Assembly: GCA_035546615.1 (NCBI GenBank) | Contig: DASZWM010000002.1 | Span: forward strand, 1 to 64,000 | Origin: Minisyncoccota bacterium | GTDB lineage: Bacteria > Patescibacteriota > Minisyncoccia > Phycocordibacterales > SBAW01 | Direction of reading: 5' to 3' | Length of the DNA: 64,000 bases | Part shown: piece by piece, positions 3,659 through 52,560 of the stretch | How the letters are laid out: every line of letters starts with the position of its first letter | Position numbering within the stretch: position 1 is the stretch's first letter | Made by a program: the position numbers and the translations under genes | Notes under the pieces: generated by a model | What the model saw: the letters and a program-made list of their open reading frames with translations, nothing else | Database searches by the model: none | What the model was told of the DNA's origin: nothing

Positions 3659-3729
3659 GCGGAATTAGTTCAGTGGCAGAACGAGTGCTTCCCAAGCATT
3701 AGGCGCGAGTCCGATTCTCGCATTCCGCA
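3659..3729 (+). tRNA. tRNA-Gly (anticodon CCC)
   Basis: Cloverleaf folds: acceptor GCGGAAT/ATTCCGC, D-arm GTTC-AGTGGCA-GAAC, anticodon stem AGTGC/GCATT with loop TTCCCAA (U33, CCC, A37), T-arm GCGAG-TCCGATT-CTCGC. No CCA encoded. Confidence 0.7.
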
Positions 3730-3779
3730 CAAAACTTGACAGGCATGCTATAATAAAAGAAAAGCTAACCACAATACTT

Positions 3780-4022
3780 ATGGACAAGAGTGTAACCATC
3801 TACAGCACACCGACCTGCCACTTCTGCCAGATGGCCAAGGAATTCTTCGCGGAGAAGGGCGTGCAGTACACCGCCTACGACGTCGCAAGCGACGCGGCAA
3901 AGCGCGCGGAGATGATACAGCTCACCGGCCAGCTCGGCGTCCCGGTCATCGTGATAAACGGCGAAGCGATGATCGGCTTCAGTCGCGACCGCCTCGCGCA
4001 GAAGTTGGGAATTGAGGCGTAA
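3780..4022 (+). CDS. Glutaredoxin-like protein (NrdH/Grx family)
   Basis: 80 aa with CHFC redox motif near the N-terminus (YSTPTCHFCQMAKEF) and a thioredoxin fold pattern. Confidence 0.75.
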   Translation: MDKSVTIYSTPTCHFCQMAKEFFAEKGVQYTAYDVASDAAKRAEMIQLTGQLGVPVIVINGEAMIGFSRDRLAQKLGIEA

Positions 4023-5225: not shown

Positions 5226-5300
5226 CAGAGGAGCGAAGCGATTACTGGGCTTGGGGCCAGGATTGGGAAGGGGTCGGAAATATTTGATTTATTTTATATT
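5226..5300. repeat. tRNA-Phe trailer with inverted copy of the tRNA 3' end and a degenerate GGGGTCGGAAA...ATTTTGTGC core
   Basis: 5249..5263 (gcttggggccaggat) is the exact reverse complement of tRNA positions 5210..5224. This is followed by GGGGTCGGAAATATTTGATTTATTTTATATTTTGTGC, which resembles the trailer cores found after other tRNAs. Confidence 0.35.
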
Positions 5301-9820: not shown

Positions 9821-10915
9821 CTATTTTACTATCGACAATTGACCCTCCGCCCTGAAGTCTTCCTTTGTTGCGTCATCAAGGCCGTTTAAGCGCCTTGCGA
9901 GCGCGGCTTCGGCTATCATTATCGCGTTGTCACCGGTTATGGAGAGCTCCGGCAGCCGGAATTCGGCGTATGAAAAGTCTTTTTCGATAAGCTTTTGCAG
10001 CTGGCTCCGCAGATGGGCGTTCGCCGCGACCCCGCCGCCGATGACGAACGTCTTGGCACCCGTTTGTTCCATCGCGCGGGCCGTTTTCTTAAGCAGTATC
10101 TCCGTTACAGCATCCTCGAACTCGCGCGCAAAATCCGCTATTTGTTCGGCCGAAAGCGTTTGTATGCCGCCCATGTCGCGCAGGGCGTAAAGCGCGGCAG
10201 TCTTAAGGCCGGAGAAAGAGACGTCGCAAGTGTCCGCCTGAAGCATGGGACGGGGAAGCGAGACAACGCTTTTTTTTCGCGAGGTTTCACCTCGCGAAAA
10301 ACTGGCAAGCCGGGAGATTTCCGGACCGCCGGGGTAGGCGAGGCCGAGCATGCGCGCAACCTTATCGAACGCTTCGCCAACGGCGTCGTCGAGCGTCTCG
10401 CCGATAATTTCATACTTGAACCACTCGCGCATGAGCACGAACTCAGTGTGCCCGCCGGATATCAAAAGCCCTAGGACGGGGAACTGCACATTCTTAATTT
10501 CCATCATTTTAGCTTTTTGCAAAAAGCTAAAATGATTGCTTCCTGTTTGTGCAAGGGAAGAGATAAGATGCCCCTCCATATGGTTGGTCGGCAGGAGCGG
10601 CAGATTTTTATCAGCCGCGAGCTTCTTGGCGAATTCGATGCCGGTCCAGAGCGCTGGCTCAAGCCCCGGGCCCTGAGTTACCGCGATAGCGTTCGCTTCT
10701 TCATCCTTAAACTGCTCAAATAGCACGGGCAGGTTCTTCTGGTGCTCGCGCTTGGCGAGATTGGGGTAGACCCCGCCATACTCGGCGTGTAATTGGGCTT
10801 GCGAAAGGAGAGCGTGCTTAAGCACGCTAAATGCGAATCCACCGGCGGTCTTTTCTCCTTCAACTAAGGCAATACCCGTCTCGTCGCAGGAGGTTTCTAT
10901 AGCGAGGATTTTCAT
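9821..10915 (-). CDS. tsaD: tRNA N6-adenosine threonylcarbamoyltransferase TsaD (Kae1/YgjD)
   Basis: Aligns along its whole length with TsaD: MKILAIETSCDETG, HMEGHL, SGGHTEF, FSGLKT and GGGVAAN motifs. Contains an in-frame insertion of about 15 aa encoded by a palindromic repeat (see findings). Confidence 0.9.
   Translation of the reverse strand: MKILAIETSCDETGIALVEGEKTAGGFAFSVLKHALLSQAQLHAEYGGVYPNLAKREHQKNLPVLFEQFKDEEANAIAVTQGPGLEPALWTGIEFAKKLAADKNLPLLPTNHMEGHLISSLAQTGSNHFSFLQKAKMMEIKNVQFPVLGLLISGGHTEFVLMREWFKYEIIGETLDDAVGEAFDKVARMLGLAYPGGPEISRLASFSRGETSRKKSVVSLPRPMLQADTCDVSFSGLKTAALYALRDMGGIQTLSAEQIADFAREFEDAVTEILLKKTARAMEQTGAKTFVIGGGVAANAHLRSQLQKLIEKDFSYAEFRLPELSITGDNAIMIAEAALARRLNGLDDATKEDFRAEGQLSIVK
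10505..10534. repeat. Perfect 30-nt palindrome CATTTTAGCTTTTTG|CAAAAAGCTAAAATG (core of a 45-nt repeat, copy 1)
   Basis: Perfect inverted repeat inside the tsaD coding sequence. Near-identical copy at 30632..30661. Confidence 0.7.
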
Positions 10916-11051
10916 AGTCTTTTTGTGTCACAAATATTTCTTCGCCGTCGCTCAGAAATTTTGCGACCCCGGCTCGCGGTTTTGCAATTGCAAAACATCG
11001 CTGCGCCCCGCACCAGGTGCAAAAACTGCCGCAGGGCAGATTTTGCGTCTC
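10916..11051 (-). repeat. tRNA-Val trailer element (family A, copy 3)
   Basis: In tRNA sense: GAGACGCAAAAT, then hairpin CTGCC/GGCAG plus T-run, then GTGCGGGGCGCAGCGATG, hairpin TTTTGCAATTGCAAAA, CCGCGAGCCGGGGTCGC, hairpin GTCGC/GCGAC, GGCGAAGAAATATTTGTGAC, then the tsaD ATG. Homologous to 39607..39760 and 49790..49943. Confidence 0.45.
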
Positions 11052-30631: not shown

Positions 30632-30661
30632 TATTTTAGCTTTTTGCAAAAAACTAAAATG
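30632..30661. repeat. Near-palindromic 30-nt repeat TATTTTAGCTTTTTGCAAAAAACTAAAATG (copy 2 of 45-nt repeat)
   Basis: Differs from 10505..10534 by two positions. The shared left flank CTTAATT extends the repeat to about 45 nt (30622..30663). Its terminal ATG is the HAD gene start codon. Confidence 0.7.
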
Positions 30662-31063
30662 AAAAAGACCGTCATCTTCGACATGTACGGCGTGCTGGTG
30701 CGCCGGAACTTTTTCATAAACGAGGAGGAAGATACGGAGATGGTCGCGCTTGTGCGGGAGCTTAAAGAAAGGGGAACTCAGCTTCTGCTACTTTCCAATA
30801 TCTATATATGGAACTCGGCGCACTTCAAAAGGAAGTACCGCTTTTTGGAGCTGTTCGACAGGCTCTACTTCTCTTCCGACACTCACTTTTCCAAGCCCGA
30901 CCCGGCGGCATTCCGAATGGTGCTTGAGGAAAATAACCTAAGCTCCGAAGACTGCGTCTTTTTTGACGACACAAAGGCCAATGTAGAAGGGGCGAAAGCC
31001 CTCGGCATAGAAGCGTATGTGTTTGAAGGCCCGGATGCGACAAGAAAAGCATTGGGTATGTAG
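30659..31063 (+). CDS. HAD-superfamily hydrolase
   Basis: Internal Met of ORF 30497..31063. Motif I VIFDMYGVL (DxD variant), motif II LSN, motif IV FFDDTKANVEGA. Confidence 0.6.
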   Translation: MKKTVIFDMYGVLVRRNFFINEEEDTEMVALVRELKERGTQLLLLSNIYIWNSAHFKRKYRFLELFDRLYFSSDTHFSKPDPAAFRMVLEENNLSSEDCVFFDDTKANVEGAKALGIEAYVFEGPDATRKALGM

Positions 31064-46693: not shown

Positions 46694-47053
46694 TTATGCG
46701 TGGTGGTATAGGAAATCATTCGTGACGTTCCCGACCCTGGAGAACCTGTTCTTTTCCCAGAATCGCTCGCTTTGGCGCTGGACTTGCACGGCGCGAATGT
46801 CCCGCAATCCGGCCTCCCAGGCTTGTTCGAGCAGTACAGCCAGCGCTTGGCTCCCGAAGCCGCGTCCATATGCCGTATGGGGTATGACGGTCATATTGGT
46901 AATGACCAGGTCGGCCCCGGTCTGCCGGTCGTTGAACACGATGCGGATGTGCGCCCGCACGGCGTTAGGGAAGGGAAAATGCAGGATGTATGCTTCTTCC
47001 GCGCGGTCGTCGGGTTCGATCTCGCAATACTCAGCCAGCTTCTTGATCAGCAT
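46694..47053 (-). CDS. GNAT-family N-acetyltransferase
   Basis: Acetyl-CoA binding pattern QGRGFGSQALAVLLEQAW in a 119 aa protein. Confidence 0.55.
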   Translation of the reverse strand: MLIKKLAEYCEIEPDDRAEEAYILHFPFPNAVRAHIRIVFNDRQTGADLVITNMTVIPHTAYGRGFGSQALAVLLEQAWEAGLRDIRAVQVQRQSERFWEKNRFSRVGNVTNDFLYHHA

Positions 47054-47061
47054 GGTCCCTC

Positions 47062-47301
47062 CTAGTGTTTCGGTTGGGTTTTGGCGTAGAGCATGACCGC
47101 AACGGCATATACGGCCGTTAGGGTCGGCGCGCCCGTGGGGTACGTCTTCACCGCATGCTTGCCCTGATTGATCTCCTCAAGCGCCCGCTCGATGTATTCT
47201 CGCGGAACAGGAGTATCTCCCCGGCCTTGCGCCGTATCCTCGACTAGTTTTACCATGTCCGACATCCGCAGATTCTCCTTACTAACGCGTTCTGCCTCCA
47301 A
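47062..47301 (-). CDS. Hypothetical small protein
   Basis: 79 aa ORF. No motif. Confidence 0.3.
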   Translation of the reverse strand: MEAERVSKENLRMSDMVKLVEDTAQGRGDTPVPREYIERALEEINQGKHAVKTYPTGAPTLTAVYAVAVMLYAKTQPKH

Positions 47302-47377
47302 AATGCACTATACGGCACCGGAGCGGAATGGGAAAGGCGAGACAGTTTTATAGTGGATAGAATAGTGGACCAAGATA

Positions 47378-47408
47378 GAAAAAGCTGGCAATAAGCCAGC
47401 AGTTTCTT
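47378..47408. terminator. Bidirectional terminator hairpin
   Basis: AAAAAGCTGGC-aataa-GCCAGC-AGTTTCTTTTTT. A-run and T-run on either side allow termination in both directions. Confidence 0.5.
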
Positions 47409-47428
47409 TTTTAGTGCGCCGGGGAGGA

Positions 47429-47609
47429 ATCGGTCAGGAATAAAGTGTTCGCCGTCGCGAATACTTTTTCACGACCCTGCCTCGCTCCCGCATCTGGTGA
47501 TGCGGGGCCCGCTCCGGCTTGCGAATCCTCACGCAAGGTATCCCATACCTTGCTCCCGCGCAGCACATAACGCAAAAAGTCCTAGCAAGAGCTAAGACTT
47601 TTTGACGTT
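47429..47609 (-). repeat. tRNA-Tyr trailer element bounded by a 15-nt direct repeat of the tRNA 3' end
   Basis: gtgcgccggggagga at 47414..47428 repeats 47610..47624, the tRNA-Tyr 3' end including the discriminator. Between the copies, in tRNA sense: terminator hairpin AGTCTTAGC/GCTAGGACT plus T-run, hairpin CAAGGTAT-ggg-ATACCTTG, GGATTCGCAAGCCGGAGCGGGCC, hairpin CCGCATC/GATGCGG, GGAGCGAGGCAGGGTCGTG, TCGCGACGGCGAA. Confidence 0.45.
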
Positions 47610-47610
47610 T

Positions 47611-47693
47611 GTGCGCCGGGGAGGATTCGAACCTCCGTAGCCCGAAGGCGACAGGTTTACAGCCTGTTGTAATTGACCACTCTACCACCGACG
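47611..47693 (-). tRNA. tRNA-Tyr (anticodon GTA), long variable arm
   Basis: Reverse complement gives GCGTCGG-TG-GTAGAGTGGTCAATTAC-A-ACAGG-CTGTAAA-CCTGT-CGCCTTCGGGCTAC-GGAGG-TTCGAAT-CCTCC-CCGGCGC-A. Confidence 0.8.
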
Positions 47694-47772
47694 CGTTTCA
47701 ATAGAACGTTCTTACTTTACACTGTTTGCTTTTCCTTGTCAGCAGGCGAAAATTGGGTGCTACAATATTGGC

Positions 47773-49789: not shown

Positions 49790-49943
49790 CAAAAGACGCA
49801 AAATGCAACCTTCGTTGCTTTTTGTGCGTTGCGGGAGACGGAGCGATGCCGCGCAATGGCGCGGCCGCGAGTCGGGGTCGCGAAAATTTTTTGCGACGGC
49901 AAAAAGTTATTTGTGACCGCTCAAAAATTTTTTTGCGAGCCGC
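49790..49943 (+). repeat. tRNA-Trp trailer element (family A, copy 2)
   Basis: CAAAAGACGCAAAAT, hairpin GCAAC-cttc-GTTGC plus TTTTTG, TGCGTTGCGGGAGACGGAGCGATG, hairpin CCGCGC-aatg-GCGCGG, CCGCGAGTCGGGGTCGCG, hairpin GTCGCGAAAA..TTTTGCGAC, GGCAAAAAGTTATTTGTGACCGC. Overlaps the 3' end of convergent miaA. Confidence 0.45.
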
Positions 49944-50800
49944 ATAGCCTTCGCTTTGTTCCCGATCCAGATAATGTCCTTGTTCCGCTTGAACCAGCGC
50001 ATCTGGCGCTTGGCATAATCCCAGTTTCCCCGTTCTATTTCCGCTACAAGCGCCTCTTTGTTCAGCAAGCCTTGCAGATACTGCGCAAGAGAACGGTATT
50101 CAAGCCCCAGCTCATGCATGCGCTTGTATGACACTCCTGCCTTGTGCAAACGTTTTGCTTCCATCACCATGCCTGCTTTCATGCGCCGGATGGTGCGAAG
50201 ATGGATATTTTTCTTGAGCTTTTTCTCATCTGGCGCCAGCCCCAGCCACAGGACGTCATATTTCTGTTCAGGCTTGGGTAGAGGGCTTTTGCCGATAGCC
50301 TTGGCTATCTCTATCGCGCGTATGATACGCCGCTTGTGTCCGGGTTCAATAGTGCCAGCGCGGCGCAGGTCGAGCTTTTTAAGAATTGACAGCAGCTCTT
50401 CGGCGCTCTTTTTCTCGAGCCGCGCACGAAGTGCGGGGTTAGGCGCCACATTGGGCATAGTCATGCGGCCCAGGAGCATATCGATATACAGCCCCGTTCC
50501 ACCAACTACTATGGGGAAAGTATGATATATCATACTTTTTTCGATCACGTTTTGCGCCTTCTTTACGAAGTCGTCGACGGAGAACTGCCTTTTAGGCGAC
50601 GCGACGTTGAGCAGGTGGTGGGGGATGCCGGCCATCTCTTTTTTTGTAACTTTGCCGGTCGCAATATCGAGGCCGCGGTAGACTTGCCGCGAGTCGGCGG
50701 AGATTATCTCGCCGCCCAACTTTTGCGCAAGAAAAATACCAAGGGCGCTCTTGCCCGAAGCGGTCGGTCCGACTATAGCGATAACTTTAGGCTTTGACAT
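49907..50800 (-). CDS. miaA: tRNA dimethylallyltransferase
   Basis: P-loop VIAIVGPTASGKS, SADSRQVYRGLDIATGK, and the rest collinear with MiaA. Confidence 0.9.
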   Translation of the reverse strand: MSKPKVIAIVGPTASGKSALGIFLAQKLGGEIISADSRQVYRGLDIATGKVTKKEMAGIPHHLLNVASPKRQFSVDDFVKKAQNVIEKSMIYHTFPIVVGGTGLYIDMLLGRMTMPNVAPNPALRARLEKKSAEELLSILKKLDLRRAGTIEPGHKRRIIRAIEIAKAIGKSPLPKPEQKYDVLWLGLAPDEKKLKKNIHLRTIRRMKAGMVMEAKRLHKAGVSYKRMHELGLEYRSLAQYLQGLLNKEALVAEIERGNWDYAKRQMRWFKRNKDIIWIGNKAKAMRLAKKFLSGHK

Positions 50801-52343: not shown

Positions 52344-52560
52344 TATGCAAGATCGAGGGTGTACGCGAATTGTCTCGCGCACACCCTTTTGCTTTTTATG
52401 GCGGGGGGAATCGGCTACCACGTAGCCAGGTACTTTTCGATCTCGATGACTCGATAACGAAAAGTCTTTCGATTCTCCCATGGAAGCAAATCAATTTGCT
52501 TCCTCCCCGGACTCCAGACAGAAAAAGAGCCGGGCGGTAAGCCTGGCCTGTTTTCTGTGG

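Follow-up and report, generated by a model that had tools for sequence, protein, structure and literature searches.

A direct repeat of the tRNA-Tyr 3' end and its probable origin in a family of structured, non-coding insertion modules of Parcubacteria

Integrase islands are classically recognised by direct repeats of a tRNA 3' end; CIMEs are att-flanked elements without recombination genes. CTXphi at dif and the hairpins of integron attC sites both integrate through a folded single strand, and IS608 recognises its cleavage sites through base pairing with an internal guide. Among structured RNAs, theta (minimal HDV-like) ribozymes adjoin phage tRNAs, mostly those without an encoded CCA, and have a proposed role in the processing of the 3' trailer (PMC10879173).

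We describe here a repeat of the tRNA-Tyr 3' end in a bacterial DNA stretch of 64,000 nucleotides (the window). The repeat is probably the far end, derived from the target, of a non-coding insertion of 197 bp (47414-47610) placed exactly at the tRNA-Tyr 3' end, one of a Parcubacteria family of structured insertion modules. It shares the flanking direct repeats of the islands, but has no integrase or other gene, and it carries an inverted copy of its target together with a structured core.

The repeat pair and the module at tRNA-Tyr

The exact 15-mer GTGCGCCGGGGAGGA has two copies on the plus strand in a search of the whole window, at 47414-47428 and 47611-47625, with 182 nt between them. The original prediction had pointed to this repeat; both exact copies are present, the second one base beyond the position 47610-47624 given for it. 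Since a tRNA-Tyr (GTA) gene sits at 47611-47694 on the minus strand, as placed by ARAGORN and by Rfam, the second copy is the 3' end of that tRNA, in agreement with the first reading. The gene lacks an encoded CCA and ends in ...GGCGCAC. Read in the tRNA sense, the similarity is longer than the 15-mer: CGAATCCTCCCCGGCGCAC at 47611-47629 and CGATTCCTCCCCGGCGCAC at 47414-47432 agree at 18 of 19 nt, with a single mismatch. From base composition, the chance expectation for a second exact copy of the 15-mer is 4e-4 per window, and 1.3e-6 within 400 nt on the same strand. A shuffle control that allowed two mismatches is weak, with a mean of 0.35 and two or more matches in 5 of 100 shuffles. A chance origin is disfavoured more strongly because a whole family of related sequences follows the same repeat rule.

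The features of the locus are as follows.

47611 to 47694, minus strand: tRNA-Tyr (GTA), the host gene (ARAGORN; Rfam tRNA, 59.3 bits).
47611 to 47629, minus strand: X, the proximal repeat CGAATCCTCCCCGGCGCAC, which is the functional tRNA 3' end (3' part of the T-loop, 3' strand of the T-stem, 3' strand of the acceptor, discriminator and +1).
47567 to 47610, minus strand: Y, a spacer with a terminator-like hairpin and the first part of the putative insertion; the hairpin, AAAAAGTCTTAGC-TCTT-GCTAGGACTTTTT, lies at 47574-47603.
47553 to 47566, minus strand: X'a, an inverted (antisense) copy of the 3' strand of the tRNA acceptor, GTGCTGCGCGGGAG, which can pair with X or X~.
47534 to 47552, minus strand: a variable hairpin, CAAGGTAT-GGG-ATACCTTG, between X'a and T'.
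47522 to 47530, minus strand: T', GAGGATTCG, antisense of the 3' part of the T-loop and T-stem, CGAATCCTC, which pairs with the start of X or X~.
47433 to 47521, minus strand: the conserved core, 89 nt with two covarying stem-loops (match to CM R1 at 47431-47522, 80.1 bits, E 4.5e-16).
47414 to 47432, minus strand: X~, the distal direct repeat CGATTCCTCCCCGGCGCAC, a sequence match to X and the end of the putative insertion.
47378 to 47408, on either strand: a bidirectional terminator-like hairpin, with its stem at 47384-47400, just beyond the distal repeat.

In the sense of the tRNA, the module thus reads: terminator-like hairpin, X', variable hairpin, T', the 89-nt core with its two hairpins, and X~. 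An inverted copy of the tRNA end within the module and the two-hairpin core had both gone unmentioned in the original prediction. The first stem-loop of the core, SL-I, consists of a GSC/GS'C helix, an internal loop and hairpin 1; the second, SL-II, runs from GGGUCG to UGAC and includes an invariant G.U pair and a GACG loop. A kink-turn in the internal loop of SL-I was considered and rejected, as the strand lengths mismatch the canonical motif when the alignment is inspected by eye.

X, Y and X'a together form one long imperfect palindrome, and the fold from X to X'a is a hairpin of about 30 bp at -44.3 kcal/mol. For the whole tRNA-Tyr trailer the fold reaches -101.5 kcal/mol, with z = -8 against shuffled controls, and in the MFE fold the pairing of X' with X~ closes the core. 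The Y hairpin is flanked by A- and T-runs; a promoter/terminator scan made no terminator call at 47574-47603. The hairpin beyond the distal repeat, which the first reading had taken for a bidirectional terminator, is terminator-like on both strands (47384-47400), and may be the original terminator of tRNA-Tyr.

Relatives in the window and in other genomes

Repeat finding, together with inspection of the trailers of all 13 tRNA genes in the window, identified related sequences at tRNA-Lys, tRNA-Cys, tRNA-Trp and tRNA-Val. A scan for the core pattern in one genome per species returned at least 119 loci, of which about 70 hold real elements and the rest are chance matches in GC-rich genomes. An alignment of 58 cores was used to construct CM R1, whose E-values are rough. 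Run on the window, CM R1 finds exactly five cores, which score 74-87 bits; every one lies on the strand of a tRNA, immediately 3' of it. The members other than tRNA-Tyr are these.

39609 to 39743, plus strand: tRNA-Lys member, of the short-repeat type; core at 39652-39738.
39760 to 39927, minus strand: tRNA-Cys member, of the long-repeat type; core at 39775-39866 and a decayed X~ at 39760-39776, with an orthologous copy in L123.
49791 to 49922, plus strand: tRNA-Trp member; core at 49833-49919, with a 4-nt repeat, CCGC, and the native flank on the MiaA side directly after it.
10919 to 11051, minus strand: tRNA-Val member; core at 10925-11011, with an X', CTGGTGCG, that contains the complement of the encoded CCA.

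At the window's tRNA-Phe, nothing is left but a 15-nt inverted copy of the gene's own end. For the Lys, Val, Trp and Tyr members of the window, the sequence that begins at the tRNA end, takes in the spacer hairpin and closes with X' reads by eye as a long imperfect palindrome, the fold having been computed for Tyr alone. The short-repeat members at tRNA-Lys, tRNA-Trp and tRNA-Val lie outside what the original prediction had described, as does the occurrence of the same arrangement at tmRNA and protein genes.

The 58 aligned cores share two stem-loops, with compensatory changes at 16 of 24 pairs and one G.U pair that is invariant. G.U pairs greatly outnumber A.C pairs, which indicates that the core folds on the tRNA-sense strand. 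Strong hits to CM R1 number at least 91, five in the window and 86 at other loci, the latter in Parcubacteria MAGs and metagenome contigs. Among the matches listed, the gene upstream is a tRNA, of many isotypes, in 65 of the 91, and a tmRNA confirmed by Rfam in four; seven hits lie at locus edges, and about 14 have something else upstream, among them the 3' ends of topA, rpsI and a further ORF. RNase P RNA was considered as the upstream gene in L002, L036 and L049 and dropped, as there was no Rfam match at E up to 0.01. The genomes with real elements, again among the matches listed, are all Patescibacteria MAGs, labelled as deposited as Kaiser-, Adler-, Nomura- or Taylorbacteria, as Paceibacterota, or generically as 'Saccharibacteria'. 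Of the tRNA genes sampled, roughly 40-55% have a module: 6 or 7 among the 13 of the window, and 65 of 145 in a set of loci that is biased. Module size across the family is 130-200 bp. Tandem arrays occur in L008, L023, L071, L108 and L224, and degenerate copies were also found.

No family for the module exists in Rfam 15, which at the gathering threshold recognises only the tRNAs in the whole window; at E up to 10, the region 47300-47720 yields the tRNA plus weak matches at chance level. A viral collection gave four hits to the pattern, none of them convincing: three were not scored at all by R1 and the fourth reached 19.9 bits, E 0.008. A phage origin was rejected, as the viral collection holds no true copy of the module. 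A search of the literature found no description of such elements.

Across the family, the segment 5' of the core is complementary to the 3' end of the upstream gene, and a direct copy of that end stands 3' of the core. In the short-repeat members (Lys, Trp and Val in the window) these matches span 4-9 nt; the tRNA-Trp module, for example, has GCGGG and CCGC as flanks for a tRNA ending in CCCGC, and the tRNA-Val module has CTGGTGCG for a tRNA ending in CGCACCA. In the long-repeat members (Tyr and Cys in the window) they extend 15-26 nt, into the T-loop, and an additional hairpin is present. The median longest exact match of X' is 11 nt to the cognate tRNA and 5 nt to non-cognate tRNAs; for X~ the corresponding medians are 7 nt and 5 nt, with 15-26 nt in long-repeat members. 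X' frequently crosses the junction between tRNA and flank. The complement of CCA appears in X' only where CCA is encoded in the gene, as for the window's tRNA-Val and for tRNA-Phe in L070, and so X' derives from the gene or its primary transcript rather than from mature tRNA. A primer binding site of retroviral type, taken from mature tRNA, was rejected, X' having no TGG unless CCA is encoded, as in those two cases.

In about half of the long-repeat members (L030 and L047, for example), X~ has decayed though X' still matches the tRNA, a pattern that a function at the level of RNA or hairpin fits as well as age does. Where a long-repeat member stands at a tRNA, X~ commonly has a terminator after it, as expected after an original tRNA end, and in L084 and L014 the repeats reach into the flank. 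At a protein gene, topA of L038, the module is placed within the 3' end, and the repeat comprises about 60 nt of coding sequence, with seven synonymous differences and one non-synonymous difference over 21 shared codons. The distal copy keeps the frame and has its own stop codon and terminator, while the proximal copy ends early, in VKKKK*. This pattern, with only eight differences in all, favours a proximal gene end imported with the element, in the manner of an island attP, and a distal copy that would be the displaced original; purifying selection on the proximal copy alone could explain part of it.

Among the matches listed, the nearest relatives of the window's cores follow different tRNAs in other genomes: the core of the window's tRNA-Cys member is 92% identical to a tRNA-Gly core (L014), and that of its tRNA-Trp member is 88% identical to a tRNA-Arg core (L045). 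Conversely, tRNA-Tyr modules elsewhere have a common flank scaffold (X'a, a hairpin, YGT, GGAGGATTCGAA ... CGAATCCTCC...) around at least three or four different cores, and the hairpin between X'a and T' differs in sequence from one genome to another. By our own reading, these alternative cores appear to be recombinations of two kinds each of first and second stem-loop. One of them is the trailer of tRNA-Leu(CAA) in the window. Judged by sequence, cores would appear to move between targets.

Empty sites, possible mechanism and rival explanations

A scan of metagenomes with the 3' end of the window's tRNA-Tyr returned at least 120 loci, about 100 of them tRNA-Tyr; sites were called empty by simple motif rules. 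Of 85 tRNA-Tyr loci with enough downstream sequence, among the matches listed, a module is present at no fewer than 14-20, and about 60 seem to be empty. The three whose ClpB is most like that of the window among the matches listed, L218, L135 and L187 (90, 87 and 84% identical), have the same convergent tRNA-Tyr/ClpB synteny, an identical tRNA end and an empty site, with 51-71 nt holding a plain terminator between tRNA-Tyr and the ClpB stop, compared with 963 nt in the window. L123 (ClpB 85%) has no module at tRNA-Tyr and has the orthologous module at tRNA-Cys. In L164 the tRNA-Tyr and tRNA-Cys sites are both empty, and the orthologous tRNA-Lys module is present. The flank after the tRNA in the empty L164 aligns with the flank of the occupied L234 past the distal repeat, with a score of 110 as against 22 for the proximal side; likewise, for the window's tRNA-Trp module against L188 and L195, distal-flank scores are 76 and 90 as against 18 proximal.

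The original prediction had suggested that the trailer is itself a tiny integrative element, to be abandoned if related tRNA-Tyr loci offered no empty sites. The comparison of orthologous loci finds the module absent from syntenic relatives, with native flank continuing past the distal repeat, and so bears the suggestion out. From such sequence comparisons we infer that the modules are mobile. Some are inherited vertically, as are the tRNA-Cys module that the window shares with L123 and the tRNA-Lys module that it shares with L164, and part of the pattern of presence and absence could therefore reflect loss rather than gain.

An enzyme for this mobility was sought with Pfam and NCBIfam models in 38 ORFs of the window, namely every ORF of 240 aa or more, together with eight shorter ones from the vicinity of tRNA-Tyr/tRNA-Trp and of the pyrimidine genes. 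No integrase, recombinase, transposase or reverse transcriptase was found among these 38. Matches were to housekeeping families only (class I tRNA synthetase, TsaD, FtsA, S1, GyrA, TopA, RelA/SpoT, AcrB, IF-2, ClpB, MiaA and PyrF), and seven of the 38 had no Pfam match. A GIY-YIG nuclease encoded inside L083 was examined as a partner and set aside, as homologues occur in only seven other loci, none of them in the window, and do not stand consistently beside modules. A pilin-like gene in the neighbourhood has an exact-protein match only in a 2-kb contig.

If modules insert as proposed, they would settle at the very 3' end of a tRNA, a tmRNA or, in some cases, a protein gene, and the host gene would stay active. 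The tRNA would stay intact, as its complete proximal 3' end precedes the module, and its transcript would end at the terminator-like hairpin that the module itself provides, ahead of the antisense X'. X' would have two possible partners: pairing with X~ would close the core into a three-way junction, and pairing with X would form the hairpin of roughly 30 bp. The order X-loop-X'-core-X~ may be the outcome of a folded single-stranded intermediate joined to the target by strand exchange inside X, a step we regard as rather doubtful. In such an intermediate the stem of X paired with X' would mimic the target duplex, and an enzyme encoded elsewhere would carry out the joining, reading the conserved core. 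Strand exchange of this kind does not account for closely related cores whose flanks match different tRNAs. Templated resynthesis at insertion, quasi-palindrome correction against the tRNA, or selection among guide variants are possibilities for that matching. Taken together, the modules might be an undescribed class of mobile element, gene-less and single-stranded (as DNA or RNA), carrying a copy and an anti-copy of the target, re-templated for each target and dependent for insertion on an enzyme, of the host or acting in trans, by which the core is recognised; we offer this tentatively, and with less than even confidence.

The same features can be read as those of a cis-acting functional RNA, a cassette for 3'-end processing, termination or stabilisation of the upstream gene. 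X' would then pair across the junction of tRNA and trailer, and the long duplex so formed might, for example, be an RNase III-type substrate or guide a ribozyme core; X~ would resemble X merely because both pair with X'. A conserved, covarying structure with an invariant G.U pair on the tRNA-sense strand suits such a role, as do a fixed position and orientation 3' of stable-RNA genes, the hairpin of about 30 bp and -44 kcal/mol from X to X'a, and an X' that still matches the tRNA where X~ has decayed (L030, L047). Theta (HDV-like) ribozymes beside phage tRNAs provide a precedent (PMC10879173). This explanation is nevertheless unlikely in our view, since the module is wholly absent in close relatives with identical tRNA-Tyr and tRNA-Trp ends, and the repeats are more identical than pairing needs and extend into the flank (L084, L014) or, in L038, over some 60 nt of a coding region. 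Strains without the module presumably mature their tRNA-Tyr normally, which speaks against its being necessary. The existence of arrays in tandem and of degenerate copies also argues against it, as do the terminator-like hairpin that separates tRNA from core and the lack of a match to any ribozyme or other family in Rfam.

Two kinds of known mobile DNA would explain the repeats in other ways. That they are the attL/attR scar of a larger, integrase-bearing island, almost wholly deleted, was the other suggestion of the original prediction, and it does not hold up well. The direct repeats fit the classic island signature, the stretch from the tRNA to ClpB contains DNA peculiar to the window, with two small ORFs at 46694-47301, and L083, a related locus, has 1.6 kb with three ORFs between a tRNA end and its distal copy. 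Yet those two ORFs fall outside the repeats, and what the repeats enclose is a conserved and covarying module that recurs about 90 times. A scar is not expected to include its target in inverted form, and no integrase is found among the scanned ORFs of the window. Distal copies at tRNA-Tyr, moreover, lie 56-320 nt away in every case and never kilobases away, over about 85 loci among the matches listed, and we consider a scar highly improbable. A MITE-like or IS200/IS605-PATE-like non-autonomous transposon, with its transposase elsewhere and the repeat as a target-site duplication or a guide-recognised cleavage site, is also very unlikely. It would suit a small, non-coding, multi-copy element with paired ends and insertion polymorphism; the strand-specific hairpins recall single-strand transposons, and guide pairing in IS608 counts as a parallel. 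However, the terminal inverted repeat is specific to the target rather than the element, and the direct repeat can be as short as 4 nt or exceed 25 nt, reaching about 60 nt in L038. The targets show no fixed tetra- or pentanucleotide, and the scanned ORFs of the window include no transposase.

Should the modules prove to be insertions re-templated for each target, about half of the sampled tRNA genes in this lineage would be trailed by gene-less elements that copy their target in both orientations. This would be a new mode of site-specific insertion, would explain much of the intergenic DNA of these very small genomes, and would point to an enzyme that reads the two hairpins of the core and finds its site of action through base pairing, in effect a naturally programmable insertion system. 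Annotation pipelines leave module loci blank, and distal copies of tRNA ends can be mistaken for island borders or tRNA fragments.

Comparison with known systems

Theta ribozymes resemble the module in being structured elements at tRNA genes mostly without an encoded CCA. Unlike them, the module keeps its core apart from the tRNA by a 44-nt spacer that includes a terminator-like hairpin, and it occurs in bacterial chromosomes, flanked by copies of its target. An HDV/theta-like or other self-cleaving ribozyme was rejected, as there is no match to an Rfam model and the core does not abut the tRNA. Group II introns, in particular those of class C, which insert after terminators, likewise have an internal segment (EBS/IBS) complementary to the sequence just upstream of the insertion, and several modules begin GTGCG after a terminator-like hairpin. 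This identification is rejected because GTGCG is the complement of tRNA ends (...CGCAC) and changes with the tRNA, the alternatives being GCGGG for tRNA-Trp, GTCC and TGCC. The 89-nt core, moreover, is far too small for such an intron, and there is no domain V, reverse transcriptase or match to an Rfam intron.

MITEs and CIMEs are, like the module, short, non-coding, multi-copy and non-autonomous, and polymorphic between relatives. The inverted repeats of the module are instead target-specific, and its conserved, covarying core means that it is no deletion derivative. MITEs have terminal inverted repeats conserved across a family and a target-site duplication of fixed length, whereas here the X'/X~ stem differs at every locus and the repeat is 4 nt at tRNA-Trp, 15-26 nt in long-repeat members and about 60 nt in L038. 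PATEs derived from IS200/IS605 insert 3' of a fixed tetra- or pentanucleotide in genomes with a Y1 TnpA; at the modules no fixed target motif is seen, and no TnpA is found among the scanned ORFs of the window.

With integron attC sites and CTXphi attP(+)/dif, the latter used by XerCD, the module shares, in its predicted fold, a strand-specific structure and an imperfect hairpin whose stem reconstitutes the site. Single-strand exchange would also give the sequence of parts seen after integration (site, loop, inverted arm, body, site), and L083 resembles an array of ORFs, each with a trailing module. The module differs in having no core-site motif (R'/R'' GTTRRRY or dif), and its stem copies the targeted gene. 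The resemblance is one of anatomy.

There is a likeness in outward form to the integrase-mediated islands and prophages at the 3' ends of tRNA, tmRNA and some protein genes: the target is a gene 3' end, the gene stays intact through duplication of that end, direct repeats flank the element, and empty sites exist. At tRNA-Tyr, a direct repeat of the tRNA end stands at both borders (15/15 exact, 18/19 when extended), and empty attB sites are found in relatives (L218, L135 and L187, with continuity of the flank). The proximal gene end in L038, which looks imported, is a further point in common. Unlike the islands, the module has no internal integrase, 197 bp leaving no room for a gene, and it combines an inverted copy of the target and a structured core with repeats that range from 4 to more than 25 nt. 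The conservative label for these modules is that of a variant, not previously described in the literature searched, of the elements that integrate at gene 3' ends with duplication of their target, one that is structured and gene-less.

Further modules and a probable remnant at tRNA genes of the window

Beyond tRNA-Tyr, three tRNA loci of the window show features linked to the module, the small structured non-coding insertion found at gene 3' ends in Parcubacteria.

52398-52557, minus strand: tRNA-Leu(CAA) trailer, with the same flank logic as the other modules
5249-5263, plus strand: tRNA-Phe 3' end copied in inverted orientation, 15 nt, perfect
49907-50800, minus strand: MiaA ORF, as listed, ending within the 3'-terminal stretch of the tRNA-Trp module (49907-49922)

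The tRNA-Leu(CAA) trailer contains a sequence resembling an inverted copy of the gene's 3' end (TCCGGGGAGGAAGC), an antisense copy of the 3' part of the T-loop and T-stem (T', GGGAGAATCGAAAG), and a decayed distal direct copy (CGATTCCCCCCGCCAT). Its core is of another type than the conserved two-hairpin segment, consisting of GAAAGACTTTT...AAAAGTACC plus a hairpin; this core type also follows tRNA-Tyr in L173 and L234, two of the Patescibacteria loci compared with the window. The inverted copy at tRNA-Phe lies 23 nt downstream of the gene and is followed by pieces similar to core ends (GGGGTCGG...AAATATTTG). The remnant is probably a module from which most of the core has been lost. At tRNA-Trp, because the MiaA ORF ends inside the module and the tRNA gene directly adjoins the MiaA side in L188 and L195, insertion of the module may have changed the last MiaA codons.

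Small ORFs and repeats outside the modules

One further pair of features lies outside the repeats, in the interval between the distal repeat of the tRNA-Tyr module and the convergent ClpB gene.

46694-47301, minus strand: a pair of short ORFs encoding 79 and 119 aa

By tblastn, no syntenic relative yields a match to either one, and the two therefore look like a separate insertion specific to the window, possibly a toxin-antitoxin pair. The longer of the two, at 119 aa, gave a GNAT-like hit that is very weak (E 0.065).

Elsewhere, the 30-nt near-perfect palindrome TCATTTTAGCTTTTTGCAAAAAGCTAAAAT occurs at two distant sites (10504-10533 and 30633-30662), and looks like a bidirectional terminator-type hairpin common to both. 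At 1-2968, four copies of a coding repeat of about 81 nt (family D1) are spread over a single long ORF and its neighbour, which indicates a repeat-domain surface protein.

Module variants in other Patescibacteria

Three modules (L002, L036, L049) share a sequence (...ACAGGTTCGAAC...) upstream of their cores, for which ARAGORN and Rfam gave no match. Their T' looks matched to a tRNA-like T-arm (GGTAGGACTCGAA), whose upstream counterpart was sought in these loci and not found. Modules also occur at an identical position in the 3' coding region of topA in two genomes, L038 (6528-6937) and L097 (about 2600-2850). The coding repeat is kept over about 60 nt in L038, with seven synonymous differences and one non-synonymous over 21 codons, and over only about 10 nt in L097.

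In L083 (1-3900), a tRNA 3' end at 1-54 recurs as an exact copy at about 1698. The intervening 1.6 kb holds a core (1593-1698) and three ORFs, one encoding an 87-aa GIY-YIG-like protein. Two further ORFs precede another core, at 3712-3818, whose inverted copy (X') is identical to that of the first. The arrangement resembles a cassette array or a form of the element that carries cargo.
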